Assembly: GCA_016278615.1 (NCBI GenBank)
Contig: JADQBM010000029.1
Location: forward strand, 22,668 to 86,667
From: Clostridia bacterium
GTDB lineage: Bacteria > Bacillota > Clostridia > Peptostreptococcales > JAAYPU01
DNA length: 64,000 nucleotides
Direction: 5' to 3'
Positions within the stretch are counted from its first letter, which is position 1; every line of letters begins with the position of its first letter. Both the position numbers and the translations under genes were made by a program. The notes beneath the pieces are model-generated. The model did no database searches. It was not told the DNA's origin and saw nothing but the letters and a program-made list of their open reading frames with translations. This document shows positions 4,844-63,091 of the stretch, in pieces.

Positions 4844-7800
4844 TTATCTGTCCTTAAGTATTTTTTCTAAAAACAAAATTAATTCATTTAACCGATTATC
4901 AAATTGCCTATAGGTCAGTTTGATAAATGGCTTTTTCCCTGCATTAATATGCATTCTTGTGGCATATTCAAAGGCTAAACTATTAATAATATAAGGTTTA
5001 AGTACATTATTTTCATAAAACTCAAAAATAATGCGTCCCTTTTCTTCTCTTATACATGAAATGCCCGCTTTCTCTGCTAAAGATTTGATGTAAGAGATCT
5101 TCATTAAGTTGTACATTTCCAATGGAAGATCCCCGAATCTATCAACCAACTCATCTTCAACTTCAGCCATTTCTTCCTTACATTGAATAGAGGCAATTCT
5201 CTTATATACTTCTACTTTGATGATTTCATCCTGTATGTAATCCTTTGAAATATAGGCATTTATTTCTATTTCTATGGAGACTTCTTTGTGTTTTATATAG
5301 GCTTCGCCTTTGATTTCTTTTACAGTTTGATCCAATAATTTACAGTACAATTCATATCCAATTATCATTAGATGCCCATGCTGTTCAACACCTAACAAGT
5401 TTCCAGCGCCCCTTATCTCTAAATCTCGCATGGCAATCTTAAATCCAGACCCAAACTCAGTAAACTCTTTAATCGCCTTCAATCTTTTTTCAGATTGCTC
5501 TGTTAGCACTTTGTCCTTTTGATAAGCGAAATAAGCATACGCCATACGATTGGATCTTCCCACCCTTCCTCTGAGCTGGTAAAGTTGAGAAAGTCCGAAT
5601 TTATCAGCATCATAAATAATAATGGTATTTGTGTTTTGAATGTCTATTCCTGATTCAATGATGGTGGTACAAACAAGCACATCGTATTTTTTACTCATAA
5701 ATGATATCATAATATTTTCAAGTTCTTTTTCATTCATCTGACCATGTGCAACCGCTACAGAAACATCAGGGACCAATTCTTGTAAATGGGCAGATATTCT
5801 TCGAATCCCCCTTACCCGATTATAAACAAAGAAAACCTGTCCCCCTCTTTCTACTTCTCTTAGAATAGCTTCTTTAATAATTTCTTCTTCATATTCTATA
5901 ACAAAAGTCTGAACCGGAAATCTTTCTTCTGGAGGTTCTTCGATGGTGCTCATATCCCTCAAACCAAGCAGGGACATATGGAGGGTTCTGGGAATTGGTG
6001 TTGCTGACAAGGTCAAAACATCCACATTTTGCTTGAGAAGTTTTATGATTTCTTTGTGTTGAACACCAAATTTTTGCTCTTCATCTATAATCAAAAGCCC
6101 TAAATCTTTAAAAGAAATATCCTTAGATAGGAGACGATGCGTTCCTACTAAAATATCTATGTTGCCATCTTTAACCTTCTTTATGATTTGTGTCTGTTCT
6201 TTTTCTGTTCTAAATCTACTTAACATTTCTATGTTAAAGGGAAACTTACCAAAACGATCTATAAAAGTTGTGTAGTGCTGATTGGCTAATATGGTCGTTG
6301 GCACTAAAACGGCTGCCTGCTTCCCATCTACAGCACATTTAAAAACTGCTCTTGCGGCAACTTCTGTTTTACCATAACCCACATCTCCGCAAAGAAGTCG
6401 ATCCATGGGAATATCGTTTTCCATATCTTCTTTGATTTGTTCAATACACTTCAATTGATCTTCTGTCTCTTCATATGGAAAAGCATCCTCAAACTCTTTT
6501 TGCCAAGACGTGTCTGGGGAAAAAGCATATCCTTTATTGGAATTTCGAATAGCACTCAGTTGGAGAAGCTCTTTTGCCATATCTACAATAGCGCCCTTTA
6601 CCTTTGCCTTTGTTTTTTTCCATTCAACACTGCTTAGTTTATTAATTTTTGGCGTTCCACTATCGGCTCCAATATACTTTTGAACCAAGTCCATTTGCTC
6701 CACGGGAACATATAACATGTCTTCTCCGCCATATTTGATTTTAAAGTAATCTTTTTTAATATTTTGAATTTCCAACTGCTGAATGCCCAAATATTTTCCA
6801 ATGCCATGATTCTCATGAACCACATAGTCCCCTACTCTTAAATCTGTAAAAACCTTTATAGGTTTAGCATCTTTATTGGAAGGTTTATTTTTTTTGATTT
6901 TAGCATTGGCAAAAATATCCGAATCTGTAATGAGTAAAATTTTATCATCAAGATATTCAAAGCCAGTGCTCAAACTGCCTTCTCCTATAACAATCTGGCC
7001 CGGTGATATTGCATAATCTGTAGATGTATACGAAGATGTGTATAGGGTGCAGTTGTGATGATTGCGGTCAAGAAATTCCTTAATATTCGTCATTCTTTCT
7101 GTAGTTGAGCAAGTAATAAATATTTTATACTTTCGCAGGACATATTTTTTTATTTCTTCTTCAAACATATCCATTCTCCCTTGAAATGAAGGTATGGACT
7201 TGGTTGAAGCATTAAGGTTTCCTGATATTTGAAATTGGGAATTGCTTCTTTTAATAAAAGGTGTAAAAAAGAAACACAATTGTTTTTCTAGAATTTGCTG
7301 GTAATCATCCAGTGAGGTCACAATATTAAAATCAAAAGGAATGGCTTCACCCTTTTCTAATAAATATTTAAAATCTTCGTGAATTTCCTTATATGCACTC
7401 TGGATTTTATCTCGTATCCTATCTGGGTCTTCCACAACAACTAAAGCATCTTTTTCCATATAATCCAATAGATATTCAACTTCATCATAAAAATAATGAA
7501 TGTAATTTTCTAATATCTGAAGATTTGTTCGTGTTTGTACAAACTCAAGAAGTTGATCCTTTTTTTGCTGAAGCTTCTCTTTGTTTTCAAGTTTCGAAAG
7601 TTGATCCTCATAGTAAGCCTCTATTTTTAATGCAGCCTTTCTAAATCTTTCTTCATCCGCAACCAATTCTTGTGCCGGGTATACAGATAAAAGCCGAACA
7701 TTCTTAATGGATCGCTGTGTTGAGATATCAAAGGTTCTAATGGAATCAATCTCCGTATCAAACATTTCGATTCGATAAGGTTCCGAAGCGTCTAAAGGGA

Positions 7801-8968: not shown

Positions 8969-9164
8969 GAAAGATAATAGATAACAGGTGACAGATAATA
9001 GATGAAAGATAATAGATAATAGTTAAGGTTGGAAATTTGCCATAGCAATTTCCTCATATATTTCTTCAAATTCTTTATAGTATAACTGAAGATTTTGAGT
9101 AACAAAATCATCCACAACTGTTATCTATTATCTGTTATCTATTATCTATCCCTAATCTCTGATC
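8969..9164 (-). repeat. HATH element copy A (heptamer-armed twin-hairpin palindrome), prs|pth spacer
   Basis: Left arm 8969-9028 (AANAGAT heptamers ending AGTTAAGG). Hairpins GGAAATTTGC/AGCAATTTCC (9031-9053) and GATTTTG-agtaa-CAAAATC (9091-9109). Right arm 9113-9164 (TTATCTN heptamers). Strand is orientation relative to copy G. Confidence 0.9.
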
Positions 9165-9174
9165 TTTGTTTTAC

Positions 9175-9199
9175 GGACAACCGCAAGGGTTGTCCCTAC
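9175..9199 (-). repeat. GC-rich TGTAG-hairpin mini-motif embedded in the outer arm of HATH-A
   Basis: The minus strand reads GTAGGGACAACC-cttgc-GGTTGTCC. Arm-like sequence (CTATCTATTGCTATC, carrying the prs stop) resumes on the far side. Confidence 0.7.
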
Positions 9200-9205
9200 G
9201 CATCC

Positions 9206-13213: not shown

Positions 13214-14614
13214 ATGAATTGCGATCAAGAAGCAAAATATTATCACTGTATTGGAATAGGCGGCATCGGGCTTAGTGCAATAGCGGAAATCTTATTAGCC
13301 AAAGGTTATAAAGTATCGGGTTCCGATATAAAAGAATCTGATATCACTCAATCTTTGGAAAACCATGGCGCTACTATTTACATAGGACATGATGAATCCA
13401 ATATTTCAAATTGTGACACTGTCATTTATACCTCAGCAGTATCAGATGACAATCCTGAATTAATATCAGCTAGAAAAAAGAATATTCCTACTTTATCTCG
13501 TGCTGAAATGCTGGGTCAAATTATGAAGGATTATTCTCACAATATCGCTGTTTCTGGAACTCATGGAAAAACAACAACGACTTCTATGGTCTCGCTAATA
13601 TTGGAAGATGGCCATTTTGATCCTACTATTTTAGTAGGTGGAAAATTAGATAAAATTGGGGGAAATGTTAAAATTGGAAAAGGTCCTTTTTTAATAACGG
13701 AAGCCTGTGAATATATGGATAGTTTCTTAGAACTAAATCCAAAAATAGAAATCATCCTAAATATTGATTCAGATCATTTGGATTACTTTAAAGACATTGA
13801 TCACATCGTAAGTTCTTTCCAGAAATTTGCGAATTTAGTCCCTATAGATGGTTTAATTGTGGCTTATAGTGCCAATGCTTTTGTGAAAAGTATCATCCAT
13901 AATGTATCTTGTAAGACCGTTACTTTTGGTTTTGATGATAGCTGTGACTACTACGCAAACCATATAGAATTCAACTCTGAAGGAATGCCTCTATTTGATG
14001 TATATTATTCTGGCGAAAAATTATGTGCCATACAACTGCTGGTTCCTGGAGAACATAATATTAGCAATTCTCTTGCAGCCATTGCATGTTGCCATACTTT
14101 AGGGGTCTCTATAGACGTAATTGTTAAAACCCTTGAAAGCTTTGAAGGGACTAAAAGAAGATTTGATATCATAGGCATTACGCCAGATCTTTTAAAGGTA
14201 GTGGATGATTATGCACATCATCCAGAAGAAATCAAAGCAACGCTGAGCGCCTGTAAAAATGTCCCCCATAAAAAATTATGGTGTGTCTTCCAGCCCCATA
14301 CTTATACAAGAACAAAAGCTCTTTTCGAGGAATTTACAGATGCTTTTGATTTTGCGGATGGTATTATTATTACAGATATTTATGCCGCCAGAGAAAAAAA
14401 TATCTATAAAATAAAAGCATCAGACTTAATCGATGAAATTAAAAAGAAACATCCTAATAAAAAAGATATTTATTATATCTCAGATTTCGAAGATATCGCA
14501 GATTTTATAATAGAAAAAACCAACCCAAAAGATCTTGTCATAACCATGGGTGCTGGGGATGTTTATAAGGTAGCAGAGCGGATTATGGAGAAGACGAAAA
14601 CAACCGAGAACTGA
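13214..14614 (+). CDS. murC: UDP-N-acetylmuramate--L-alanine ligase
   Basis: GIGGIGLSAIAE Rossmann motif and P-loop GTHGKTTTTSM, with Mur ligase middle and C-terminal domains. The last codons and stop lie in the outer heptamers of HATH-B. Confidence 0.95.
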   Translation: MNCDQEAKYYHCIGIGGIGLSAIAEILLAKGYKVSGSDIKESDITQSLENHGATIYIGHDESNISNCDTVIYTSAVSDDNPELISARKKNIPTLSRAEMLGQIMKDYSHNIAVSGTHGKTTTTSMVSLILEDGHFDPTILVGGKLDKIGGNVKIGKGPFLITEACEYMDSFLELNPKIEIILNIDSDHLDYFKDIDHIVSSFQKFANLVPIDGLIVAYSANAFVKSIIHNVSCKTVTFGFDDSCDYYANHIEFNSEGMPLFDVYYSGEKLCAIQLLVPGEHNISNSLAAIACCHTLGVSIDVIVKTLESFEGTKRRFDIIGITPDLLKVVDDYAHHPEEIKATLSACKNVPHKKLWCVFQPHTYTRTKALFEEFTDAFDFADGIIITDIYAAREKNIYKIKASDLIDEIKKKHPNKKDIYYISDFEDIADFIIEKTNPKDLVITMGAGDVYKVAERIMEKTKTTEN

Positions 14615-14786
14615 GAACTGGAAACTTAAAACTGAGAGATAATAGATAAGAGATAATAGATAACAGTTAAGGAAGGCTTTTGCGTAGAATACGCAAAAGC
14701 CCTCTTTTTTATCTGATGAAAGTTTTGTTATACAAAACTATCCTCAACTCTTATCTATTATCTGTTATCTTTTATCTCTCACTTAT
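14606..14786 (-). repeat. HATH element copy B, murC|amidohydrolase convergent spacer
   Basis: Ten in-phase heptamers at 14606-14672, starting inside the murC 3' end. Hairpins GGCTTTTGCGTA-gaa-TACGCAAAAGCC (14675-14701) and AGTTTTG-ttata-CAAAACT (14721-14739). Right arm 14740-14786. Confidence 0.9.
14675..14710 (+). terminator. murC terminator formed by the first mini-hairpin of HATH-B
   Basis: 12-bp perfect stem GGCTTTTGCGTA/TACGCAAAAGCC followed by CTCTTTTTT. Confidence 0.75.
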
Positions 14787-15950: not shown

Positions 15951-15970
15951 TTTACCCCTCCTTGGATGGT

Positions 15971-16294
15971 TAAGGATATAAGATAAGAGATAATAGATAA
16001 TAGATAATAATTATGGATGATTTTGTTTCACAAAATCTAGATTGTCTCATAATCTGTCCTGAATTATTACCAAGATTTAATCTTTAGTATCAATAAAAAT
16101 GAAGATTCTGGAACAAAATCCACCTCAACTCTTGAAGCCCTAGCTCAAATCTTCGATTTGATGTGCAGGTGTCATACAAGTGGAACTTTCTAATCTATGA
16201 TTAGTTAAAGTTGCCATTCGCTCTGTGGAAACTCTCCAATCTTTGATTGGTAAGAGTTTTTCAGTTATCTGTTATCTATTATCTATCTCTAACC
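15971..16294 (+). repeat. HATH element copy C (long variant with nested module), HAD|amidohydrolase spacer
   Basis: Left arm 15971-16016. GATTTTG-tttca-CAAAATC (16018-16036). Second degenerate GATTCTG-gaa-CAAAATC (16104-16120). Nested module 16131-16263. Right arm 16264-16294. Confidence 0.85.
16131..16263 (+). repeat. Nested hairpin module (long form) inside HATH-C
   Basis: CTTGAAGCCCTAGCTCAAATCttcGATTTGA..CATACAA, then two related hairpins (AACTTTCTAATCtatGATTAGTTAAAGTT and AAACTCTCCAATCtttGATTGGTAAGAGTTT), ending GTTTTTCAG. It sits between the junction and the right arm. Confidence 0.8.
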
Positions 16295-16305
16295 TCTCCT
16301 CTATT

Positions 16306-24403: not shown

Positions 24404-24445
24404 AGCGCACTCCTGCATCAAATAATGGATTTATTATTTTATATG

Positions 24446-24466
24446 GCGGGAGACCCGCCCCTACAA
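24446..24466 (-). repeat. GC-rich TGTAG-hairpin mini-motif next to HATH-D
   Basis: The minus strand reads TGTAGGGGCGGG-tct-CCCGCC. Confidence 0.7.
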
Positions 24467-24490
24467 ATACTTTTCAGATGACATAATGAG

Positions 24491-24632
24491 AATTTTGTGT
24501 AACAAAATATCCTTAATTATTGAAGACCTAACTCAAATCTATGATTTGAAATGTAGGTCTCATACAGAAACTCTTCAATCTTTGATTGGCTAAGAGTTTT
24601 TCAGTTAATTGTTAATTCTTAATTCTTCATTG
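24491..24632 (-). repeat. HATH element copy D (partial: one hairpin, nested module, TTAATTN arm; no left arm), ahcY|mtaD spacer
   Basis: ATTTTG-tgtaa-CAAAAT (24492-24508). Junction CCTTAATTA. Module 24520-24603. Four TTAATTN heptamers at 24605-24632, ending 8 nt from the ahcY stop. Confidence 0.75.
24520..24603 (+). repeat. Nested hairpin module (short form) inside HATH-D
   Basis: TTGAAGACCTAACTCAAATCtatGATTTGAAATGTAGGTCTCATACAG, then AAACTCTTCAATCtttGATTGGCTAAGAGTTTTTCAG. The ends are colinear with the C module, and one hairpin unit is missing. Confidence 0.8.
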
Positions 24633-28195: not shown

Positions 28196-28283
28196 ATTTC
28201 TTTCCTTTCTTGTTGTAAATAATAATTAATCTCACTGTTAATAACTATATTATATGGTTTTGACTTCTATGTGTCAACATCAG

Positions 28284-28790
28284 GGAAATCGAAATTTAAG
28301 TTTAAGCTTGAGTTAAGTAGCTTTATGTTTATTTTAATCATTTTTTTCTGTTTCATTGATTATTTTTTGAAAAATATATAAACTAAGTGATGTGATAAAA
28401 AATGGAAATTGAAGTTTAAGTGTAAGTTTAAGTAAAAATGTGGAAGCTTAAGTGTAAGTTCAAGTGAAAAGTGGAAGTATAAGTGTAAGTCATGTAGGGG
28501 CTGGTCCTGTGCCTGCCCGAAGTAAGTAGGAGTGAAAGTGAAAGTTTAAGTTTAAGTATAAGCGAAAAGTTTGTAGGGGCTGGTTCCTGTGCCTGCCCGA
28601 AGTAAGTAGGAATGGTGGAAGTGTAAGTGTAAGTAAAAGTGGAAGTTTGAGTTTGTAGGGGGCTGGTCCTGTGCCTGCCCGACAAAGAGAAGCTGGAGTC
28701 TAAGTTTATGTGGAAATATAAGTATAAGCGGATTTACACTTAACACTACAACTCTAAGTGTTGTTCAACTATACTTATACTTCATAATAT
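28284..28790. repeat. AAGTNN-hexamer repeat region with three ~80-nt tandem units and a terminal mini-palindrome (HATH-related variant J)
   Basis: Two tracts both start GGAAAT(C/T)GAA(A/G)TTTAAGT (28284, 28404). Three units of hexamer tract plus a 38-39-nt GC motif start at 28493, 28572 and 28654. Terminal inverted arms GAAATATAAGTATAAG (28713-28728) and CTATACTTATACTTC (28769-28783) surround the hairpin ACACTTA/TAAGTGT. Confidence 0.85.
28493..28682 (+). repeat. Three copies of the GC-rich TGTAG-hairpin motif in region J
   Basis: TGTAGGGGCTGGTCCTGTGCCTGCCCGAAGTAAGTAGG at 28493-28530 and 28572-28610 (one extra T); truncated copy at 28654-28682. Stem GGGC(T)GG/CC(T)GCCC. Confidence 0.85.
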
Positions 28791-28805
28791 GGAAGGATGA
28801 TAAAT

Positions 28806-32906: not shown

Positions 32907-34571
32907 TTATATTTTCAACAATTTTGTTATTTCTTGTTTCATCCTTTCACATTTTTCTTTAGCCTCTTTCTCTGATTTGGCAACACTTGAAAAGTATAGC
33001 TTCAACTTTGGCTCTGTCCCAGATGGCCTAATGGCTACCCATGAATCACTTTTCATCTTGTATTTCAATACATTTTCTTCAGGAAGTCCTGTCTCATCCT
33101 TTAAATAGTCCGTAATACTAACTATTTCTCCATCAATCTCTGATAAAGGATTTTCTCTCAATTTTGTCAATATCTTTCTCATTTTTTCCATGCCATTAAC
33201 CGTATCAAAGCGGACATTATGTAAAATCTCATAATAAAAACCAAATTGCTCATATAATTCAGCGAGTCGATCATAGATGGTTTTTCCTTGTAACTTATAG
33301 CACGCTGCCATTTCTGCTAAGAGCAAGCATGCGTTGACAGCATCTTTATCTCGTGCATGGGTGCCCGATAAATATCCATAACTTTCTTCATACCCAAAGA
33401 TGTAAGCGTTAGATTGCTGTTTTTCAAATTGTGTTATCTTTTCACCGATGTATTTAAAGCCTGTCAAAACCTCCATAACTTCAATGCCAGCACTTTCAGC
33501 AATTCTTTTACCCAGATTACTGGTAACCACTGTTTGAATCATAACTGCTTTTTCCGGAATATGGGCGCTATATTGAATCAAATAGTCTAAAAGAAGCGCT
33601 CCTATTTGGTTGCCATTTAGCAAAAGATAGTTTCTCTTCTGATCTCTTACAGCAATACCCACTCGATCACAATCTGGATCTGTTGCCATGACCAAATCTG
33701 CATCAATTTTCTTTGCTAAGATCAAGGACATATCAAGGGCTTCTTTATTCTCCGGATTGGGGGCCTTTACAGTAGAAAAATTGCTGTCCCGATTATTTTG
33801 CTCTTCTACAATGTTCAGATTGTTTAAACCACTTCTCCTAAGTATTTCAGGCACACAGGTTATTCCTGTACCATGAAGAGGTGAATACACAATTTTAACT
33901 TCTTTATCTACCCGAGTTCCCGTTCTGAGTTTTAAAACCTCTTTATAGTATGCTTCATCTATTTCGTCTCCCACCTCACTATAAAGTGAATGTGTCTTCA
34001 AATTTCCTTTATATATTTTAATTTTATTGAAGCTATCAATGTCAGAAAAAGCTTTGATTATAGGCCTCATATCTTCTGGAACCAATTGACCTCCATAGTC
34101 ACTGTACAATTTATATCCGTTATCAGTCTTGGGATTATGACTGGCTGTTATGACAATGCCTCCCGCCGTTTTTAAATATCTCACTGCAAAAGAAAGTTCG
34201 GGGACGGGCCGAACATCTTTAAACAAATAAACACTTATATTATTTCCTAAAAACACTTTAGCAGCTGTTTCAGCAAACTCTCTCGACTTGTGCCTTGTGT
34301 CATAAGCAATAACAATACCTGCGTCCCCTACACCAGACGCATTTAAATGAGCAGAAAAAGCTTGGGTCGCTTTTGCAACTTGATATTTATTAATTCTATT
34401 GGTTCCAATGCCTATTTTACCACGCATACCCGCCGTTCCAAAAGATAAGTCCTGATAAAAAAGCTCTTCTATAAGCGTTTTATTTTCTTTTATGGACTGT
34501 AAGGTTTTTTTATCCTCTTCATCAATAAATGGATCTTTAATCCATTGATCATAAGTCTCTTCATATCCCAT
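32907..34571 (-). CDS. Phosphoglucomutase/phosphomannomutase family protein
   Basis: Active-site loop ITASHNPKTDNGYK and Mg loop ATDPDCDR; 554 aa. Confidence 0.9.
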   Translation of the reverse strand: MGYEETYDQWIKDPFIDEEDKKTLQSIKENKTLIEELFYQDLSFGTAGMRGKIGIGTNRINKYQVAKATQAFSAHLNASGVGDAGIVIAYDTRHKSREFAETAAKVFLGNNISVYLFKDVRPVPELSFAVRYLKTAGGIVITASHNPKTDNGYKLYSDYGGQLVPEDMRPIIKAFSDIDSFNKIKIYKGNLKTHSLYSEVGDEIDEAYYKEVLKLRTGTRVDKEVKIVYSPLHGTGITCVPEILRRSGLNNLNIVEEQNNRDSNFSTVKAPNPENKEALDMSLILAKKIDADLVMATDPDCDRVGIAVRDQKRNYLLLNGNQIGALLLDYLIQYSAHIPEKAVMIQTVVTSNLGKRIAESAGIEVMEVLTGFKYIGEKITQFEKQQSNAYIFGYEESYGYLSGTHARDKDAVNACLLLAEMAACYKLQGKTIYDRLAELYEQFGFYYEILHNVRFDTVNGMEKMRKILTKLRENPLSEIDGEIVSITDYLKDETGLPEENVLKYKMKSDSWVAIRPSGTEPKLKLYFSSVAKSEKEAKEKCERMKQEITKLLKI

Positions 34572-34600
34572 GCATTTCTCCCCTTCAACTAAGCTATTTT

Positions 34601-34738
34601 TAGATAACAGATAATAGATAACAGTTAAGGTGAGTTTTGCTATGCAAAACTTAATCTTAATTTATAATAGATGAAATTTTGCTCATGCAAAATATTCCTA
34701 AACTATTATCTGTTATCTGTTATCTATTATCTTTATGG
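34601..34738 (-). repeat. HATH element copy E, fabZ|pgm spacer
   Basis: Left arm 34601-34630. AGTTTTGC-tat-GCAAAACT (34633-34651). ATTTTGC-tcat-GCAAAAT (34676-34693). Right arm 34705-34738, ending 3 nt from the fabZ stop. Confidence 0.9.
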
Positions 34739-34740
34739 GC

Positions 34741-35172
34741 CTATTCTGCCTCTACCATAGCAAAGGACAGTTCGGCTTCACAAACCAAGTTCTCCCCAAC
34801 ATATGTAAAAGCTTTTGCTTTTCCAATGGTTTTTCTGATACGTGTAATTTCTACCTCTATCCTTAGGGTGTCTCCTGGGACGACCATCTTTCTGATTTTG
34901 CAATTATCTATTCCCGTAAATACCCCTAACTTATCTTGCAATTCACTTTGATATTTAATGGTAATGGCACAAACCTGAGCCATGGCCTCAAGAATCAGCA
35001 CCCCTGGCATAATAGGCATCCCAGGGAAATGCCCTTGAAAAAATGGTTCATTGATGGTGACATTTTTAATGCCTATAGCTCTTTTTTGAGACTCTATTTC
35101 CGTTATCTTATCCACTAGCAAGAATGGATAGCGATGAGGAAGTAGTTTTAATATATCCTTAGTATCTAACAC
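34741..35172 (-). CDS. fabZ: 3-hydroxyacyl-ACP dehydratase FabZ
   Basis: LLPHRYPFLLVD..FFQGHFPGMPIMPGVL hotdog signature; 143 aa. Confidence 0.95.
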   Translation of the reverse strand: MLDTKDILKLLPHRYPFLLVDKITEIESQKRAIGIKNVTINEPFFQGHFPGMPIMPGVLILEAMAQVCAITIKYQSELQDKLGVFTGIDNCKIRKMVVPGDTLRIEVEITRIRKTIGKAKAFTYVGENLVCEAELSFAMVEAE

Positions 35173-37669: not shown

Positions 37670-37695
37670 AATACTTAGTTTAATAGTCCATTGGA

Positions 37696-37866
37696 AAACA
37701 ACGCGAGATTATACATGATTAGGTATAAGCCGAAGCGGAAATCATAAGGAAGGTCATGTCCTTGTGAGAAACTGACAGGCAAAAGAAACGTTGTTTGATG
37801 GAACTCTGGAGATACTGTATATAAACAGAGCCAACGAGGAAATAACCAACAGGCAAAAAGACAGAG
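37696..37866 (+). promoter_or_regulatory. Tandem glycine riboswitch (two aptamers)
   Basis: Aptamer 1: P1 AAACAACG (37696-37703) pairs with CGTTGTTT (37789-37796); internal GCCGAAGCGGAAA; a 9-bp P3b hairpin; CTGACAGGCAAAAGAAA. Aptamer 2: ACTCTGGAGA..GCCAACGAGGAAA..CAACAGGCAAAAAGACAGAG, with P1 CTCTG/CAGAG (37804-37808/37862-37866). These match the glycine-aptamer signatures CUCUGGAGAG, CACCGAAGGGGCAA and CUCAGGCAAAAGGACAG. Confidence 0.8.
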
Positions 37867-37909
37867 GAGTATAATGACGCTTTTATTAGCGTTGCTATAT
37901 TCTTTTTTT
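37866..37909 (+). terminator. Expression-platform intrinsic terminator of the glycine riboswitch
   Basis: GGAGTATA-atg-ACGC [ttttatta] GCGT-tgc-TATATTCT followed by TTTTTT. Its 5' strand starts at the last base of aptamer-2 P1. Confidence 0.6.
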
Positions 37910-37992: not shown

Positions 37993-39330
37993 ATGAAAAT
38001 GTTATTAGTTGGAGCTGGTGGTGTTGGTGAATCTATACTTAAAATATTAAAGGTTCGAGATCCAAATGGCTCATGGCTGAAAAAAGTTATTGTTTCAGAC
38101 TATGATTTAAAACGTGCAGAAGAAGTTGTCAATCACTTAGGAGAAGATTCCAGATTCATTGCAGAAAAAGTCAATGCAAAAGATATTAATGCAATCATTG
38201 ATCTCATAAAAAAACATGAATGTGACTTCGTTATGGATGCAGCTGCACCTTTCGTTTCCAATAATATCTTTGATGCTGCTTTTTTAGGAAATGCGAATTA
38301 TGCTAATATGGGAACTTGGTCGGTCCCTTTAGAAAAGCCAAAGTACGGTTATGGTCTTGAAAACAACTTTAGTGAATCTATGGCAGCATATAATTTCGAC
38401 CAGCATGAAGAGTGGCAAAAAAAAGGTATTATGGCTTGTATTTGCTTAGGCATTGATCCCGGAGTCGTGGATGTATTTGGAAGATTTGCGGCAGAGTATC
38501 TTTTTGATGAAATCCACGAAATCCATGTAAAGGACGGCGGAAATCTTCGAATTCCAGGAACTGGTGATTATGATATTGCCTTTGGTTTTAATGTTTGGAC
38601 CGTTTTAGATGAGGTTTTAAATCCTAATGTGGAATGGAGTAAAGATAAAGGCTTCTTCATAGAACCTGCTTTCGCAGGACAAGAAACGTTCCAACTACCT
38701 GTAAGTGTTGGTTCAAATACAATGGTAAAGGTTGAACATGAAGAAACTGTTCTTATGCCTCGGTTCTTACAAAAATATGGTCTGAAGAAATGTAGCTTTA
38801 AAATTAGTCTAGATGATAGCTTGGTTAATGCACTTAAAGTCATTGATGGTTTAGGACTCCGAAGTCTTGAAGATGTAGATGTGGGGGGTGTAAAAGTTAG
38901 ACCAAGAGATGTTGTTGCTGCAGTTGCACCACAACCTAAGGATCTGGGCAGTGAAATGATAGGGAAAATGGTAGTAGGCATACATTGTATTGGAATTAAA
39001 AATGGCATGAAGCGTGAAATCTTTATGTATCAGCCTTTTGATAATCAAGAATCCATGGAAAAGTGGGGCATGCAAGCAGTGGTTGCTCAAACTGGTTTTG
39101 GTGCTGCCATTGGAATCGAAATGATTGGAAGAGACTTCTGGAAAGATGCGGGTGTATACAGTCCCGAGTACTTCAATCCCATCCCCTACCTTGAAATTAT
39201 GGATGAGTCCGATTTTGAATACGGCATCGTTGAAATGGATTCAGAATATAAAGCAAAACAAGATAAAGAAACAATGGCAGAAATATTTGAGAAAGCAAAA
39301 ATGAAAAACGTAATGAACAATGAAAAATGA
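37993..39330 (+). CDS. Saccharopine dehydrogenase-family NAD(P)-binding oxidoreductase
   Basis: N-terminal Rossmann motif MLLVGAGGVGESI; 445 aa with family-typical length and layout. Preceded by a glycine riboswitch. The last codons lie in the HATH-F arm. Confidence 0.75.
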   Translation: MKMLLVGAGGVGESILKILKVRDPNGSWLKKVIVSDYDLKRAEEVVNHLGEDSRFIAEKVNAKDINAIIDLIKKHECDFVMDAAAPFVSNNIFDAAFLGNANYANMGTWSVPLEKPKYGYGLENNFSESMAAYNFDQHEEWQKKGIMACICLGIDPGVVDVFGRFAAEYLFDEIHEIHVKDGGNLRIPGTGDYDIAFGFNVWTVLDEVLNPNVEWSKDKGFFIEPAFAGQETFQLPVSVGSNTMVKVEHEETVLMPRFLQKYGLKKCSFKISLDDSLVNALKVIDGLGLRSLEDVDVGGVKVRPRDVVAAVAPQPKDLGSEMIGKMVVGIHCIGIKNGMKREIFMYQPFDNQESMEKWGMQAVVAQTGFGAAIGIEMIGRDFWKDAGVYSPEYFNPIPYLEIMDESDFEYGIVEMDSEYKAKQDKETMAEIFEKAKMKNVMNNEK

Positions 39331-39507
39331 ATAATGAACAGTGAGTAATGAATAATGAACAATGAATAATGAATAATGGAGGTTGGTTTTGCTTTTAGCA
39401 AAACCTTCTTTTATAAATGCAAGCTTTTGGAACAAAAGCCTCCATAATTATTCATTATTCATTATTCATTATTCATTGTTCATTGTTAATTGTTCATTGT
39501 TAATATT
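39310..39507 (-). repeat. HATH element copy F (ANAATGA/TCATTNT arm flavour), saccharopine-DH|lrgB convergent spacer
   Basis: Ten in-phase ANAATGA heptamers at 39310-39379, including the CDS stop TGA at 39328-39330. GGTTTTGC-tttta-GCAAAACC (39385-39405). GCTTTTG-gaa-CAAAAGC (39423-39439). Nine in-phase TCATTNT-type heptamers at 39445-39507. Confidence 0.9.
39385..39414 (+). terminator. Terminator of the saccharopine-DH-family gene formed by a HATH-F mini-hairpin
   Basis: GGTTTTGC-tttta-GCAAAACC followed by TTCTTTTAT. Confidence 0.6.
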
Positions 39508-48107: not shown

Positions 48108-48300
48108 CAGATAAAAGATAATGAAAAGAAAAAAGAGATAAGAGATAACAGATAATAGATAACAGTTATGGAGGATTTTGATTCTCAAAATCTTCATTTT
48201 ATTTTAATAGAATTGCTAGTTTTGCCTAAGCAAAACTTACCTTAACTATTATCTGTTATCTGTTATCTCTTATCTTTCTTTAACCTATTATCTCTTATCT
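48108..48300 (+). repeat. HATH element copy G (reference orientation), hydA|trmB convergent spacer
   Basis: Left arm 48108-48171. GATTTTG-attct-CAAAATC (48174-48192). AGTTTTGC-ctaa-GCAAAACT (48218-48237). ACCTTAACT junction. Right arm to 48300, containing the trmB stop codon. Confidence 0.9.
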
Positions 48301-48950: not shown

Positions 48951-49126
48951 AGAATTAGAGATGTGAGATAATAGATGAAAGATAATAGTTAATAGTTAAG
49001 GTGAGTTTTGCTTAGGCAAAACTACAATTTGAATAAAATATAATGGAGATTTTGAGTATCAAAATCATCCTAAACTATTATCTGTTATCTCTTATCTGTT
49101 ATCTGTTATCCATTTATCTTACTAAG
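48951..49126 (-). repeat. HATH element copy H, nrdG|trmB spacer; close inverted copy of G
   Basis: Left arm 48951-49001. AGTTTTGC-ttag-GCAAAACT (49004-49023). GATTTTG-agtat-CAAAATC (49048-49066). Right arm 49077-49126. The reverse complement aligns with G through arms and core. Confidence 0.9.
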
Positions 49127-52743: not shown

Positions 52744-52772
52744 CTCTTCCCCCTCCTTTACTTTCTACTTGG

Positions 52773-52901
52773 TTAGATAATAGATAAATAGATAATAGTT
52801 GTGGTAGGATTTTGTTGCACAAAATCTTCATTATAAGATGAAAGTTTTGCGTGCAAAACTATCCGTAACTGTTATCTCTTATCTATTATCTCTTATCTTT
52901 G
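52773..52901 (+). repeat. HATH element copy I, DUF4015-like|L,D-transpeptidase spacer
   Basis: Left arm 52773-52804. GATTTTG-ttgca-CAAAATC (52808-52826). AGTTTTGC-gt-GCAAAACT (52843-52860). Right arm 52871-52901. Confidence 0.9.
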
Positions 52902-52930
52902 AAGGGCAATTAACAATTGCCCTTTTAAGC
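52902..52930. terminator. 10-bp perfect hairpin between the DUF4015-like gene stop and HATH-I
   Basis: AAGGGCAATT-aac-AATTGCCCTT. The T-tract (TTTAAGC) is on the plus side only, so function for the minus-strand gene is uncertain. Confidence 0.4.
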
Positions 52931-55929: not shown

Positions 55930-56826
55930 TGTAATTCTTTAGCAATAGGTGCTATGGTGGCTTTTGCTGAAGCCATTAATGAAAGCGGCTATGAACCTGA
56001 TAGAACGATTGTCTTTTGCGCTTTTGACTCTGAAGAATTTGGTGCAATGGATGTAGGTACAGATTGGTTGGTTGGATCTTGGAATCTATTAAAAGAGAAG
56101 AGTGATGATTGAGCGGCATACGGATCCTGAAGTAACTGAAACCTTCTATCATTCTCAGTTTGATACCGAAGAAAGAGCTTCTATTGATAAATATAAAGAG
56201 TGTTTATCAACTTATGGAAGCTTGTTGATTAAAATCGTCTGATTACTAAGCTATTGGACGAGGCCCTTTCTTCAGGCAAGGATCTCAGCACTGTAGAGAG
56301 CTTAATTGCTGATTATAATCAAGGTCAAAGGGATGCTGCAAAAACAATCATTATGGGTACTCAATACTTAGACGTTGAATCAGTTGCTTATCAAGCACAT
56401 TACTATGCAAACCTTCCTCAAATGTTTGATACAGCCATAAGCGCATTAAATGATGGCGACGCAGCAGCAGCCATTTCTGCATTAAAGCTTAGTGGCAAAT
56501 ATTATTCAGAGTTTCTTGATAAAGAAACTTGGTACAAAACCTATCAAGACAGTATTGTTTTAGATGCTCCAGATAGAGAAATTCTCTGGGCAAAAGGCAG
56601 AAAGTTAAAAGCTTATGATCATTATGATTTATTTGAAAGCTTAAGAGCAAAAGCTGAAAATGGAAGAACTGACTTTGCTGATGAAATAGAGACACTTCAA
56701 ACCTTTAAAGTAGATGCTTTACAAAGAGTCGCATCAAGTTATGCATCGGATAAAGCTGTTTTTGAGAAAGCATCAAAAGAGCTTCCTTTAACCCTCGCCG
56801 ATGAATTGATTGAAGCCCTTAAATAA
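55930..56826 (+). pseudogene. Decayed M28B (PA/transferrin-receptor-like) peptidase gene: 5'-truncated, two frame breaks, internal deletion
   Basis: Three fragments in three frames. 55942-56112: AIGAMVAFAEAINESGYEPDRTIVFCAFDSEEFGAMDVGTDW, the M28 metal-ligand region. 56114-56242: ETFYHSQFDTEE, matching the YHS..ET motif of GCPII-type enzymes. 56254-56826: a helical TFR-dimer-like tail. No N-terminal half is present. Confidence 0.65.
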
Positions 56827-56827
56827 A
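56785..56827 (+). repeat. 43-nt direct repeat, left copy (3' end of the M28B pseudogene)
   Basis: CCTTTAACCCTCGCCGATGAATTGATTGAAGCCCTTAAATAAA. It matches the right copy at 63049-63091 at 41 of 43 positions. Confidence 0.9.
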
Positions 56828-57118: not shown

Positions 57119-60100
57119 ATGATGTGCATGAATTGGAAATATTCTAAATCGATAAGCATGACTCTAATTTTCATGATGGTTTTTTCATTATTAATTACTA
57201 TCAGCTATGGTGAGGACTTAAATCAATCTGTAGATTTAGCCCAAAATGATGGACCACAAAACATCGAAGAAGTAAATATGAGCGATATTAGTAACCATTG
57301 GGGATATGAAGCAATATCCAAATGGGTGGATAAAAATCTGATTTCAGGATATCCTGACGGGACATTTAAACCAGACGGCAAAATTACAAGAGCAGAGTTG
57401 TTAACTTTAATAAATAGACTATATGGGTTTTATGAAACATCAGATAAAAACTATAGTGATGTAGCTGAGGATGATTGGTACTATGATGAAGTAAGCATTG
57501 CGAAGAAAAATATGTATTTAGATTGGTACAAAGAAAAAGCGTTTTATCCCAATAAAAAAATCACTAGACAAGAAGCATGTGCAATCTTATCAGCTATAAA
57601 CAACTTGGATTTATTGCAGGAATCAGCATCTATGCAGGCTTATTCAGATTATGCTAGCATTCCGGAGTGGAGCAGAGAATATATAGATGCAGTTGTTAGT
57701 AAAGGATACATAAAAGGCTATGAAGATAAAACTTTAAGACCAGAAGGAGAGATCACCAGAGCAGAGGCGGTCACAATGCTGGATAGGGTTATAGGAAAAT
57801 TGATCAATAAAGAAGGAACGTATGGTCCTGAAGAAGGACAACAAATTATTGAGAGTAATCTTACAATAAACAGTAAAGATGTTATATTACAAAACACTAT
57901 CGTAAAAGGAGATTTAATACTTGCTGCTGGAGTCAAAGAAGGAAATGTTGATTTGCAAAATGTCATTGTTGAAGGTAAAACTATTATAAATGGTGGCGGA
58001 GAAAATTCAATTACATTTGACAGCAGTGTTCTAGGAGAAATCATTGTCTTTAAAGTCAATGGAATGATTCGAGTGGTATCAAAAGATAGTGAAATAGGTA
58101 GATCAATACTAAAGTCCGGAGGGAAGTTGGAAGGACAATTTAATGATTCTAAAATTGAGATACTAGGTGATGGGCAAAAAATAGAATTGGATGGAGATTT
58201 TGATGAGATAAAGGTTGAAGCGGAAATAACAATAGAAGTTACAAATGATACAACAGTGAATGTTCTAGAAATCGCAAAAAATGGTAATGGGACACAAATT
58301 GATATTGAGAAGAATGCACAAGTTAGGGAGATTATATTTAATGAATCTGCAATAGTAACAGGTAAAGGAAATGTAATTATTGCTAAGATAAATGCAGATG
58401 AAGTTACTATGGAACAACAAGTTGAACAGAAAATAGTACAAAGTGGAGTTGACGGCAGCGGCGTAAAGGAAAAAACAAAAAGTACTGGTTCTTTTGGTGG
58501 CACTTCTAGGGATAATACCGCACCAACGCCAGGAAATAACGGAAACATTGATATAGAGTGTAGAACACAATCAGCTATACTAAGTTGGGTAGAAGCAACA
58601 GATAATAAAACGGATCAGAATGAATTAGAATATTTAGTTTATTATTCTGAAAATGACAATATAGATACAGTATCCGACATAGAATTAAACGGAGATGCTA
58701 TTGGAACTTATGAGGCTGATATAAGAACAAAATCAGCTATAGGGCTCACTTCTGATACAACATACTATTTCAATGTCATAGTAAAAGACGAATCAGGAAA
58801 TAAAAGCTCATATGAAAGCATTTATGCAAAGACGGATGCACTGGAAGATATGACTACACCAACTGTTAACACATATTTTCCGGTAGCTGATGCAAATGAC
58901 ATAGCAGCAGACAGCGATTTAGCACTAGAATTTAATGAAACTGTAGTAAAAGGAATCGGAAATATTACAGTCAAAAAATCAGATAATACTACAGTAGAAA
59001 CGATCAATGTCACATCAAGTGCTGTGACAATCAATTCTGATGAAGTAACCATTAATCTATCTAGCAATTTAGAATATGGAACAGGGTATTATATCTATAT
59101 TGATGCAGGTGCGTTTTTAGATTTGTCAGGAAATCAATATGCAGGTATAGATGATGCGACAGTCTGGAACTTTACTATAGAAACTGCGCCAGATACAGGT
59201 CCACCAACTGTGAACACATATTTCCCAGCTGATAATGCAAATGACATAGCAACAGACAGCGATTTAGTAGTAGAATTTAATGAAACTGTAGTAAAAGGAA
59301 TCGGAAATATTACAGTCAAAAAATCAGATAATACTACAGTAGAAACGATCAATGTCACATCAAGTGCTGTGACAATCAATTCTGATGAAGTAACCATTAA
59401 TCTATCTAGCAATTTAGAATATGGAACAGGATACTATATCCTTTTAAATGCAGGCGCATTTTTAGATTTATCAGGGAATACGTATGCAGGTATAGACGAT
59501 AGTGTAACATGGAATTTTACAGTTGTATCTTCAAAAGAAATGACAGGGGAAGGAACAAGTGATAATCCGTTTATTATTAACAGCATTGAAGATTTGGTAC
59601 TTGTAGGTAGTGGTGTGAATAGCGATGGCAATGATTATAGCTTTTCAGCATACTATGAATTAGGACGTGACCTAGACTTTGAAGCAACTGGAAGTTATGA
59701 ATCAGAAACTGTAAATACTTCCCTTACTAAAGCAGGTGGTGGCTCAGGCTTCACGCCTATAGGAAGTAATAGTGACGCATTCAATGGTTCTTTTGACGGC
59801 AAAGGTTATGTAATTTCCAACCTATATATGAATACATATAAATCAGGAGAAGTAAACTATGCTGCCTTATTTGGATATGTTATTAATGGGCAAATAAAGA
59901 ACTTGGGAATCGTAGATGCTGATATAACTGCAAGCGCATACAATCATAATCCTATATCAAGTATATTAGCTGGAGCTAATATTGGAGGGACTATCACAAA
60001 TTGCTATGTAACTGGTAATTCTAACGCTGTACGAACAGGTACAAGTGGAAGTAGCTATGCTAGTGGATTGATCGGTTCAAATGATGGTAGCATTACAAAC

Positions 60101-61258
60101 TGTTATGCGGAGGTAGATGTTGAATCTTCAGCTGGAACATATACTGCGTATGCAGGTGGATTGGTGGCTGCTTCTGGGGGCGGTAGCGTTATTAGTGATT
60201 GTTATTCTATGGGCGATGTGACAGTATCAGGTGGAAGCGTTGATGGTGGAGGTATTGCAGCATATAATCACGGTACAATAACACGCTGCTATTCCACTTG
60301 TGATATATCTGCCACAGGAACAGGCGGATTAAGAGTTGGAGGAATAGTTGGATACAATGGCAGTAACAGCATAACAAGTTCTATTGCATATAATAACACA
60401 TTAACAACTTCTACTACTGGAACCAGTTATATTGGCAGAGTTGTTGGAAATAATACAGCGACACTTTCCAATAACTATGCTAAAGAGAATATGATAGGTG
60501 GAGGCGGAACGGCTACCCATGACGACACTGGTGGTGCGGATATCTCGATGACACAATTAAATGAGATTAGTAGTTATGATAATACGGGTACTGCCCCAGA
60601 TCTTAACTGGGATTTTGATACCATATGGCAAATGGGTTTAGACAGACCAATAATTCGAGGTGTGGGAGACGATAATGGCGGATTACCTTTCAATTATTTA
60701 ATCAATGATGATTTTGAGGATGATACAGCAGGTTCTGCCCCTTCTGATTGGACTATAAAATATACACCGGTAACAGTATCTAATACAATTAGTAAAAATG
60801 GTAGTCATTCCCTAAGCCTTGATGGTGTAAATGGGTCAGCAGCAGCTTGCTATAAGCCAATTGATATTTCAGGATTAAACACCCTTATTTTTGAAGCTTT
60901 TCTATACCCGACTTCCGAACAAGAAAATGGGACTATGGAGTTTTCAAATAATTACGAAAACAGGAAATTAAGAGTGACGGTTTTAAATGGAAAAATACAA
61001 TACAGCACAAGCGCCCATGATAATAACAATTTAGTTGAGCTAGCAGATTATACCGTCAATACTTGGTATCATGTAAAAATAGTAACGGACTTAGTAGCAA
61101 AAACTTTTGATGTTTATACTGATGGTATAAAGCGAAATAATGATCCAATATCGCTAATTAATATGTTAACGCCACTAAATGCAGCAGGAATGTCTTCGGG
61201 TAACTCTGGTGGTAGTAACCTAATATACTTCGATGATGTCAAGGTATACGGTTATTAA
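57119..61258 (+). CDS. Giant cell-surface protein: signal peptide, 3 SLH domains, beta-helix region, FN3, 2 tandem Ig-like domains, GLUG-motif repeats, LamG-like C-terminus
   Basis: 1379 aa. SLH motifs (..ISGYPDGTFKPDGKITRAEL.., ..IKGYEDKTLRPEGEITRAEA..). Repeated GLUG-type segments (GGLVAASGGGSVISDCYSMGDV and others). C-terminal concanavalin-like domain. Confidence 0.9.
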   Translation: MMCMNWKYSKSISMTLIFMMVFSLLITISYGEDLNQSVDLAQNDGPQNIEEVNMSDISNHWGYEAISKWVDKNLISGYPDGTFKPDGKITRAELLTLINRLYGFYETSDKNYSDVAEDDWYYDEVSIAKKNMYLDWYKEKAFYPNKKITRQEACAILSAINNLDLLQESASMQAYSDYASIPEWSREYIDAVVSKGYIKGYEDKTLRPEGEITRAEAVTMLDRVIGKLINKEGTYGPEEGQQIIESNLTINSKDVILQNTIVKGDLILAAGVKEGNVDLQNVIVEGKTIINGGGENSITFDSSVLGEIIVFKVNGMIRVVSKDSEIGRSILKSGGKLEGQFNDSKIEILGDGQKIELDGDFDEIKVEAEITIEVTNDTTVNVLEIAKNGNGTQIDIEKNAQVREIIFNESAIVTGKGNVIIAKINADEVTMEQQVEQKIVQSGVDGSGVKEKTKSTGSFGGTSRDNTAPTPGNNGNIDIECRTQSAILSWVEATDNKTDQNELEYLVYYSENDNIDTVSDIELNGDAIGTYEADIRTKSAIGLTSDTTYYFNVIVKDESGNKSSYESIYAKTDALEDMTTPTVNTYFPVADANDIAADSDLALEFNETVVKGIGNITVKKSDNTTVETINVTSSAVTINSDEVTINLSSNLEYGTGYYIYIDAGAFLDLSGNQYAGIDDATVWNFTIETAPDTGPPTVNTYFPADNANDIATDSDLVVEFNETVVKGIGNITVKKSDNTTVETINVTSSAVTINSDEVTINLSSNLEYGTGYYILLNAGAFLDLSGNTYAGIDDSVTWNFTVVSSKEMTGEGTSDNPFIINSIEDLVLVGSGVNSDGNDYSFSAYYELGRDLDFEATGSYESETVNTSLTKAGGGSGFTPIGSNSDAFNGSFDGKGYVISNLYMNTYKSGEVNYAALFGYVINGQIKNLGIVDADITASAYNHNPISSILAGANIGGTITNCYVTGNSNAVRTGTSGSSYASGLIGSNDGSITNCYAEVDVESSAGTYTAYAGGLVAASGGGSVISDCYSMGDVTVSGGSVDGGGIAAYNHGTITRCYSTCDISATGTGGLRVGGIVGYNGSNSITSSIAYNNTLTTSTTGTSYIGRVVGNNTATLSNNYAKENMIGGGGTATHDDTGGADISMTQLNEISSYDNTGTAPDLNWDFDTIWQMGLDRPIIRGVGDDNGGLPFNYLINDDFEDDTAGSAPSDWTIKYTPVTVSNTISKNGSHSLSLDGVNGSAAACYKPIDISGLNTLIFEAFLYPTSEQENGTMEFSNNYENRKLRVTVLNGKIQYSTSAHDNNNLVELADYTVNTWYHVKIVTDLVAKTFDVYTDGIKRNNDPISLINMLTPLNAAGMSSGNSGGSNLIYFDDVKVYGY
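58857..59525 (+). repeat. In-frame 345-nt tandem duplication inside the SLH surface-protein gene (two Ig-like domains)
   Basis: Copy 1 is 58857-59180 and copy 2 is 59202-59525. 58926-59085 is identical base-for-base to 59271-59430 (160 nt). Confidence 0.95.
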
Positions 61259-62909: not shown

Positions 62910-63048
62910 CCAACCTTATCTATATCTCGTAATAATATCATTCTTTATTTACTTGAAATTTCCTCTAATTACTTTTAACTATTATAACAAGATTGTAGAT
63001 TTACGTAAAGCGAAAGTGATAGCAAAATAAATTTGATCAGAAAAACTA

Positions 63049-63091
63049 CCTTTGACCCTAGCCGATGAATTGATTGAAGCCCTTAAATAAA
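63049..63091 (+). repeat. 43-nt direct repeat, right copy (orphan gene 3' end)
   Basis: CCTTTGACCCTAGCCGATGAATTGATTGAAGCCCTTAAATAAA, followed by a 15-bp GC-rich terminator. Confidence 0.9.

Follow-up and report, generated by a model that had tools for sequence, protein, structure and literature searches.

A palindromic repeat with heptamer-array arms in the fabZ-pgm spacer of an uncultured Clostridia bacterium, and its likely read-through as an RNA duplex

The spacer between fabZ and pgm in the 64-kb window (the whole stretch of DNA analysed, from an uncultured Clostridia bacterium) is exactly window positions 34572-34740, a length of 169 nucleotides (nt). Both genes lie on the minus strand, fabZ at 34741-35172 and pgm, a phospho-sugar mutase gene, at 32907-34571, in the conserved gene order mreB-fabZ-pgm. 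The spacer holds a palindromic element, here named E. It opens with (AGATAAN)3-4 and AGTTNNGG, continues with two hairpins, the first of them small, on either side of an AT-rich stretch, and closes with CCNNAACT and (NTTATCT)4. In our judgement, element E is probably a repeat, one copy of a multi-copy non-coding palindromic family that is inserted in operon junctions and likely read through as an RNA duplex. The parts of the locus are as follows:

34569-34585, minus strand: pgm Shine-Dalgarno site AAGGGGAG (34585-34578) and start codon ATG (34571-34569)
34602-34630: arm 1 of element E, plus-strand letters AGATAAC AGATAAT AGATAAC and the tag AGTTAAGG; the 3' arm on the sense RNA, 16 nt from the pgm Shine-Dalgarno site
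34631-34653: small hairpin 1, TGAGTTTTGC-tat-GCAAAACTTA, terminator-like only on the plus strand, which is antisense to the operon
34654-34675: AT-rich centre, with the -10-like TATTAT (34669-34664, minus strand) of a weak candidate promoter; its -35, TTTGCA, lies 16 nt away in small hairpin 2, at 34691-34686
34676-34693: small hairpin 2, ATTTTGC-tcat-GCAAAAT
34697-34732: arm 2, the inverted tag CCTAAACT and four NTTATCT units; the 5' arm (AGATAAN)4 on the sense RNA, starting 8 nt past the fabZ stop codon

On the minus (sense) strand, the fabZ stop codon is followed by 8 nt, (AGATAAN)4, AGTTTAGG, a hairpin of 7 base pairs (bp), a 22-nt AT-rich spacer, a hairpin of 8-10 bp, CCTTAACT and (NTTATCT)3, after which 16 nt lead to the Shine-Dalgarno site AAGGGGAG and the pgm ATG. 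Period-7 arrays were found by TRF in both arms. The RNA of either strand is predicted to form a single long imperfect hairpin (minus strand, -51.3 kcal/mol, z = -10.0; plus strand, -50.0 kcal/mol, z = -7.8), in which the duplex consists of 14+11+3 bp with single mismatches. The open reading frame (ORF) at 34679-34951 on the plus strand is a spurious antisense ORF over fabZ and gives no coding support for element E; a coding role of the elements was rejected in general, as an ATG lies within the tag in elements G and C only.

Repeat finding and inspection revealed nine elements (A-I) in the window. The pattern GATAACAGATAA has 40 matches at no more than one mismatch, versus 0.7 expected, and TRF reports period-7 arrays at every element arm. 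The elements are distributed as follows:

A, 8972-9150: prs to pth, co-directional; preceded at 9168-9200 by a GTAG-tagged GC hairpin
B, 14637-14777: murC / amidohydrolase, convergent; murC has a good intrinsic terminator in the plus-strand hairpin at 14675-14701
C, 15981-16286: HAD to amidohydrolase, co-directional; AGATAAN arms around extra "type-2" hairpin modules that also occur in D
D, 24443-24632: ahcY to mtaD, co-directional; a degenerate mosaic
E, within 34572-34740: fabZ to pgm, co-directional
F, 39311-39504: convergent spacer; heptamer AATGAAY, about 10 units per arm, tag AATGGAGG
G, 48109-48300: Fe-hydrogenase / trmB, convergent; orthologous copy in contig L091 of the nearest relative
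H, 48959-49110: nrdG to trmB, co-directional; orthologous copy in L091, and an empty site (57 nt) in the relative BM5_bin.11
I, 52774-52898: DUF4015 to YkuD, co-directional; best internal promoter-like match, TTTGCA-16-TATAAT, 52857 to 52830 on the minus strand

The elements occupy non-promoter spacers, namely gene 3' ends and intra-operon junctions: they are present in 6 of the 30 co-directional and 3 of the 8 convergent spacers of the window and in none of the 8 divergent ones. All six co-directional gene pairs lie on the minus strand. The flanking genes were identified with NCBIfam and Pfam as pth, prs, a PpaX-like HAD gene, amidohydrolase, an MtaD-like deaminase, ahcY, phospho-sugar mutase, fabZ, trmB, nrdG, YkuD and DUF4015. 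Two mechanical ORF starts were corrected: pth starts at the ATG at 8943 and encodes 184 amino acids, the length of a 100%-identical database protein (P0241), and trmB starts at the ATG at 48939 (match P0121, 214 amino acids, 100% identity and coverage). The start of mtaD is probably the ATG at about 24403.

Thirteen type-1 half-elements, all intergenic, occur in the 64 kb. Each follows the plan (AGATAAN)n, A[G/A]TTNNGG, 0-3 nt, a hairpin (usually xTTTTG-loop-CAAAAx) and a UUCAU-like tail. A full element (130-200 nt) consists of two inverted modules, each formed by a purine-rich AGATAAN array, the last-unit tag AGTTNNGG and a 7-12 bp hairpin. Element F has the same order of arm, tag, two hairpins and arm, and its fold is the most stable in the window (-81.5 kcal/mol); in element D, AAGAATT heptamers and a GTAG hairpin are combined with two modules, one of type 2 and one with a AATTAAGG hairpin. 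The likeness from copy to copy is only 60-85%. The AGATAA core is near-invariant, with 139 of 144 positions identical between partner arms, while the seventh heptamer base is free and is complementary across the arms in 8 of 24 cases, versus 8.0 expected by shuffling. The long stem thus carries a mismatch or wobble at approximately two in three seventh positions.

The full elements all fold to long imperfect hairpins with z-scores from -5.4 to -13.2 (the doublets A, B, E, G, H and I, -5.6 to -13.2), and the z-score of element D is about -2.6. The predicted stems span ~28-35 bp with single mismatches, those of the other elements being comparable to that of E or longer. A sequence-only reading of this DNA had proposed that the elements can form a long imperfect duplex; the predicted folds bear this out, and the predicted stems are long enough for RNase III. 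The strand asymmetry of the folding energy was considered as a sign of RNA-level selection and rejected, the sense strand being if anything the weaker. No Rfam family was found for the elements in a whole-window scan at the gathering threshold or in E-value scans of E, G/H and C; in the latter, the elements matched only plant microRNA hairpin models, below threshold, and region C matched none.

The window genome carries SpoIIID, SpoVG and SpoVT genes and represents an uncultured spore-forming Clostridia near Anaerovoracaceae. Its nearest relative is a metagenome organism in ENA (contigs L091 and L094), with Pth 89% and TrmB 76% identical. Two further relatives are metagenome-assembled genomes (MAGs), "Anaerovorax odorimutans" BM5_bin.11 (GCA_016841185.1), with Pgm 73% identical, and CAZKKX (GCA_964553505.1), with Pth 80% identical. 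Orthologous spacers compare as follows:

fabZ-pgm: 169 nt in the window; 21, 25 and 33 nt in three less closely related genomes; 65 nt in the close relative BM5_bin.11
nrdG-trmB: 215 nt in the window; 57 nt in BM5_bin.11, with a conserved post-stop hairpin as its only content
prs-pth: 262 nt in the window; 48 nt in CAZKKX
HAD-amidohydrolase: 355 nt in the window; 82 nt in CAZKKX

At four of the six co-directional sites, the spacers of relatives are thus only 21-82 nt long. Such short orthologous spacers argue strongly that the elements reached these operon junctions later, by secondary insertion or expansion. The three fabZ-pgm spacers of 21-33 nt keep the mreB-fabZ-pgm order and have the Shine-Dalgarno site alone inside. 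In the 65-nt spacer of BM5_bin.11, the stop codon is followed by AGATAAC AGATAAT AGTTAAGG and by the Shine-Dalgarno-proximal tail, a solo arm without hairpins; this tail is the sole part of the fabZ-pgm spacer common to the relatives. The series from 21-33 nt, through the 65-nt solo arm, to the full element in 169 nt provides a concrete case of element birth. Singlets or solo arms are also found at other orthologous sites in BM5_bin.11 and CAZKKX. For ahcY-mtaD and DUF4015-YkuD, one relative was compared (BM5_bin.11), and it too has elements there, one of them a singlet; its DUF4015-YkuD palindrome (L084 628-732, orthologous to window 52744-52930) has arms of AAGTRN hexamer/12-mer repeats rather than AGATAAN. 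In the closest relative, prs and pth are separated by 363 nt (L094) that hold a quite different mosaic, so turnover is also real.

Two observations on the same junctions stand beside this comparison. The prs-pth spacer of BM5_bin.11 contains an AATGAAN singlet, comparable to the unit of element F. In two relatives, the HAD-amidohydrolase spacers orthologous to window 15951-16305 (L093 927-1146 and L095 1186-1267) consist largely of (ATCATAG)n-type heptamers that reach the Shine-Dalgarno site; these relatives thus have (ATCATAG)n where the window has (NTTATCT)n, different units at one orthologous position.

The gap between an element and the downstream gene was taken as the distance separating its last clean heptamer and the Shine-Dalgarno site; the values of the sequence-only reading are given alongside:

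prs-pth: 16 nt (earlier value, 13)
HAD-amidohydrolase: 17 nt (9)
fabZ-pgm: 16 nt (15-17)
nrdG-trmB: 16 nt, or 9 nt with one degenerate heptamer (1)
DUF4015-YkuD: 17 nt (16)
ahcY-mtaD: about 30 nt, from the GC hairpin (31)

The earlier values are roughly right, except that the two smallest, 1 and 9 nt, depend on counting degenerate heptamers. The outer ends do lie near the Shine-Dalgarno sites, as that reading had stated; this proximity is not special, because anything inserted in a spacer of 21-50 nt is bound to end beside the Shine-Dalgarno site, and it mostly reflects the geometry of a short spacer. Its view that the elements probably lie within operons, between co-directional genes, is well supported by the tight orthologous spacers at four of the six junctions, a comparison and not a promoter search.

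A consensus terminator scan found no sense-strand terminator-like hairpin in any of the six operon elements. It flags plus-strand hairpins only, namely those of B (14675-14701) and G (48171-48195), which face plus-strand genes in convergent spacers, and that of E, which is antisense. The features of an intrinsic terminator are seen in the plus-strand hairpins of B and G and in none of the six operon copies, whose sense hairpins have stems with 2-3 G-C pairs and UUCAUC tails. Read-through is most likely, given that the sense hairpins have no U-tract and that pth, pgm and trmB are among the genes downstream. We infer that the elements are co-transcribed and fold within polycistronic RNA.

Such a polycistronic RNA would carry an AU-rich imperfect duplex of ~30 bp, capped by the two small hairpins and ending 9-17 nt before the next Shine-Dalgarno site. 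The duplex might then act as a determinant of processing or stability, as a target of RNase III or another endonuclease. Alternatively, it might block 3' exonucleases and shield the upstream cistron, or give the downstream cistron a new 5' end beside a ribosome-protected Shine-Dalgarno site. By any of these routes, the two halves of the operon would come to different levels. This role in RNA processing or stability, for example through RNase III cleavage, is speculative. Palindromic repeats within operons are a classical bacterial route to unequal output of co-transcribed genes, and to our knowledge they have hardly been described in Clostridia. If the elements are co-transcribed, a length-variable duplex would lie beside the ribosome-binding sites of the housekeeping genes pth, pgm and trmB, and the slippage-prone arms could offer tunable post-transcriptional control.

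Several points weigh against the read-through duplex. The seventh heptamer base does not covary between the arms (24 cases), so the arms are not copies held complementary. The sense RNA is less stable than the antisense RNA in five of the six operon copies; with a sense fold no better than the antisense one, nothing points to optimisation at the RNA level. Together, the weaker sense fold and the non-covarying base suggest DNA-level symmetry or sequence-specific reading of AGATAA over selection for an RNA duplex. Sense sigma-70-like matches (9-10 of 12 positions) lie inside five of the six operon elements, and six of the seven promoter-like matches in these elements are on the sense strand. A conserved hairpin followed by TTGTTT lies 3' of nrdG and could cause partial termination or attenuation, although the terminator scan did not flag it. 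The conservation of elements H and G, described below, comes from one genome pair. No transposase domain was found among the ~40 window ORFs scanned, and a tblastn search of the fetched loci with an IS200 TnpA query gave spurious matches only, the sole weak one falling in an ABC-transporter gene.

It is possible, if rather unlikely, that each element supplies an outward promoter of its own, whose -35 would lie in the first small hairpin and whose -10 would lie in an ATTATCT arm unit or the AT-rich centre. The downstream genes would then be independent transcription units and the operon would be rewired, as some Correia elements of Neisseria rewire transcription by supplying promoters. The sense matches of E (TTTGCA-16-TATTAT), I (TTTGCA-16-TATAAT, 10 of 12) and H (TTGATA-16-TATTTT) lie at equivalent positions, those of A and C use the arm sequence TATTAT, and the sense-strand bias noted above and the conservation of the central spacer of H in L091 also speak for such promoters. 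However, the density of matches is 3.3 per kb per strand in the elements versus 2.1 in the whole window, and the counts are within shuffle expectation in every region; at about background level, the matches neither prove nor exclude internal promoters. Moreover, the candidates have no extended TG motif, element D has no sense match, and the -10 candidate of H is not kept in the L091 orthologue, where the invariant T is lost (TATTTT to TATTTC). A match of similar quality occurs in element G, where no gene lies downstream. The sequence-only reading had seen no convincing outward promoters in the arms; its statement needs the qualification that weak sense sigma-70-like matches are present in five of six elements.

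We regard it as unlikely that the elements are selfish or neutral palindromes at the DNA level (REPIN-like replicators or by-products of slippage near hairpins) that are tolerated without an RNA role. Equal folding of the two strands would suit such palindromes, as would the orthologous spacers, in which different mosaics come and go, the avoidance of divergent promoter spacers and the co-occurrence of GTAG-tagged REP-like hairpins. The heptamer number also varies between orthologues, the left arm of H having 5-6 heptamers in the window and 3 in L091. On the other hand, no transposase was identified, and the cores of H and G, which lie at orthologous sites in L091, are conserved far above synonymous level.

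From tag to tag, 77 of 83 aligned positions agree between the window and L091 in the core of H (85 nt, 91%) and 70 of 83 in that of G (84 nt, 83%), whereas identity is 63% at the third codon positions of the neighbouring trmB and Fe-hydrogenase genes. The differences fall in the loops, the central spacer of G and the heptamer number, and one change gains a stem base pair, so that the stems are kept while the loops change. The inner module of element D is also recognisable in BM5_bin.11. Given core conservation of 83-91% against 63% at third codon positions, the hairpin modules appear to be constrained and are probably more than mere junk.

An exact-pattern scan of species-representative genomes with GATAANAGATAANAGTTNNGG matched at least 82 DNA stretches; its taxon counts are a sample, and some single matches, notably inside ORFs, are due to chance. 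The module occurs with wholly different hairpin sequences at many of the listed loci, such as those of Anaerocaecibacter muris, a goat Ruminococcus MAG and Clostridiales AS22. In all fetched loci, a hairpin lies within 7 nt of the tagged array in 67 of 93 cases (72%), versus 25.5% in composition-matched random sequence, and every stem position of the array-following hairpins shows several Watson-Crick pair types. In the Bacteroidales matches, the AGATAAN arrays directly abut the ATG. A related heptamer-armed element with AGATAAC and AGAGAAN units and GC-rich hairpins lies in the co-directional pth-mfd spacer of Ruminococcus sp. RGIG2355 (L012 4684-4894); it stops ~10 nt short of the mfd ATG, and an obvious Shine-Dalgarno site was not seen there. 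The above-synonymous conservation of orthologues and the module plan in distant genomes point to a function or to a long-lived replicator.

This distribution may be taken further, to an unrecognised and phylogenetically wide functional class of intergenic sequence (array, GG-ending tag and hairpin) that is selected at operon junctions and gene 3' ends through a dedicated partner, an extension that we consider doubtful. It would cover Clostridia and, in a simpler form, genomes labelled Bacteroidales, Elusimicrobia and Patescibacteria. The partner would be an RNA-binding protein that reads NAG with a period of 7 and gates the neighbouring hairpin or ribosome-binding site, or else the module would be a new replicator of REPIN type that has a transposase of its own, whose cleavage and repair generate the heptamer arrays.

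It is quite improbable that the elements form a regulon, and not a mobile repeat, in which the heptamer arrays bind a sequence-specific protein. HutP reads (NAG-N4)n with a period of 7, and a ring-shaped RNA-binding protein of this kind, reading a period-7 NAG-N4 pattern, might control termination or antitermination at the adjacent hairpin, or the adjacent ribosome-binding site; a DNA-binding protein is the other option. The near-invariant AGATAA (139/144) with a free seventh base and without covariation between arms would fit, as would the consistent position of the arrays 5' of a hairpin and the other heptamer arrays that extend up to the Shine-Dalgarno site in the orthologous HAD-amidohydrolase spacers. 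The Bacteroidales arrays that abut the ATG also resemble the TAACTGA repeats upstream of start codons in Beggiatoaceae, for which MacGregor proposed protein binding (PMC4679880). Nevertheless, different heptamers are found at one orthologous position in related genomes, the arrays stand in both orientations on one transcript, the flanking genes share no common function, and no candidate binding protein was found among the scanned window ORFs. Equally remote is the view that the small hairpins are intrinsic terminators and the elements merely separate transcription units: the module hairpins of B (14675-14701) and G (48171-48195) in convergent spacers have U-rich tails and were flagged, and the amidohydrolase-murC singlet of BM5_bin.11 and CAZKKX resembles a bidirectional terminator, but none of the six operon copies passes the scan on the sense strand (2-3 G-C pairs, UUCAUC tails) and the ancestral junctions of 21-57 nt are too small for a terminator plus a promoter.

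Other repeats and features were observed in the window. A GAACTGA/AAACTGA heptamer array at 14602-14637 adjoins element B, and its units are close in sequence to the TAACTGA repeat of Beggiatoaceae, Cyanobacteria and Bacteroidetes. The type-2 module common to C and D (16100-16260 and 24520-24600) consists of CTGAAAAACTCTTA(C/G)CCAATCAAAGATTGGAGAGTTTC and a TCAAATC...GATTTGA hairpin; a fragment also occurs in L094, and the module has no Rfam match. GC-rich, REP-like hairpins with a 5' GTAG tag are located at 9168-9200, 24443-24466 and 28493-28682. The divergent spacer 28196-28796 contains three direct copies of a GTAG hairpin (GTAGGGGCTGG-tcctgtg-CCTGCCC) with a period of 83 and an AAGTNN hexamer array before each. 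This GTAG-tagged REP is also present in the prs-pth spacer of the closest relative (L094), and similar hairpins occur in BM5_bin.11 (L090 ~6674-6700; L084 11703-11771 and 12543-12666). The saccharopine-dehydrogenase-like gene at 37993-39330 is preceded by a glycine-GGAnGA riboswitch (37688-37868, plus strand; Rfam RF03166, 144 bits), the sole family that the whole-window Rfam scan reported. The gene for an SLH/Big_5 surface protein of 1379 amino acids (57119-61258) contains a tandem duplication of 345 nt at 58857-59500 (1.9 copies, 91% identical). A 56-nt direct repeat (89% identical) at 56772-56827 and 63036-63091 terminates in TAAATAAA; its first copy is the 3' end of ORF 56254-56826 and its second lies in an unannotated spacer, and the two may mark two paralogous small genes.

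Comparisons with known systems place the family closest to REP/REPIN/BIME in working principle and architecture. REPs, including those in E. coli operons, act in mRNA stabilisation and in attenuation within operons. The REP/REPIN/BIME sequences of Proteobacteria are likewise short, tagged, extragenic multi-copy hairpins, with inverted doublets that make a larger hairpin, decayed singlets and a mosaic composition, situated at gene 3' ends and operon interiors and not in promoter regions, and persistent at orthologous sites (PMC3116915, PMC3337134, PMC3733652, bioRxiv 10.1101/2021.07.10.451892). However, the tag here is AGTTNNGG in AGATAAN modules or AATGGAGG in F instead of GTAG/CGTC; in the window, GTAG is found only on the separate GC-rich hairpins that co-exist with the heptamer elements. 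The stems are rich in A and U, the long one being made mostly by the tandem array of 3-6 heptamers before each hairpin; the host is a Clostridia lineage, and neither a RAYT nor another Y1 transposase turned up among the scanned ORFs or fetched loci. We do not file the family as REP because the defining GTAG/CGTC tag is absent and the RAYT search was confined to the fetched DNA.

Heptamer arrays in hairpins or near start codons are known from other bacteria. In the hmw1A 5' untranslated region (5'-UTR) of Haemophilus influenzae, an (ATCTTTC)n array is one arm of a hairpin whose cleavage by RNase III sets expression (PMC12721329). As in the elements here, for which co-transcription is inferred, a transcribed heptamer array lies in a long hairpin just upstream of a gene and the repeat number changes; hmw1A has its own upstream promoter, phase variation and a G-rich partner arm at a single locus that is neither dispersed nor intra-operon. 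With the hmw 5'-UTR as its best precedent, RNase III cleavage of the elements is plausible. The TAACTGA repeats of Beggiatoaceae, Cyanobacteria and Bacteroidetes are intergenic heptamers in 2-6 copies near the start codon with a patchy phylogeny (PMC4679880); when rotated, the unit of the elements here (TAACAGA or TAATAGA) differs from theirs by one base. No hairpin or inverted arm is reported for them, and they overlap the ribosome-binding site, whereas the arrays here stop 9-17 nt before the Shine-Dalgarno site.

The Correia elements (NEMIS) of Neisseria and the ERIC/IRU of enterobacteria are palindromes of 100-150 nt between co-transcribed genes that form long mRNA hairpins. RNase III cleaves those of Correia elements, of which some copies provide promoters, the same dichotomy between promoter and read-through that the sequence-only reading had raised. 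In both, the ends are genuine terminal inverted repeats with a duplicated target site (TA for Correia), the copies are much more alike, and there are no tandem heptamer arms. Nor does the family here look like a clean miniature inverted-repeat transposable element, as no defined ends or target duplication were seen: each end is a fuzzy heptamer array whose copy number varies, element E has no direct repeat on its flanks (GCCCATAA ... AAAAATAG), and the filled and empty sites are too diverged to define a target duplication. Within Clostridia, stem-loops between co-directional genes of ABC-transporter operons set the ratio of upstream to downstream product (PMC9045158). These are locus-specific, in contrast to the dispersed repeat family with repeat arms described here.

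We found no literature description of a palindromic repeat with stems made of simple-sequence repeats, and searches with the arm sequences returned nothing relevant; a heptamer-armed repeat of this kind is apparently undescribed so far. The intra-operon position is ordinary for the REP-type class, and the heptamer arms, the module shared across taxa and the conservation are the points worth pursuing.

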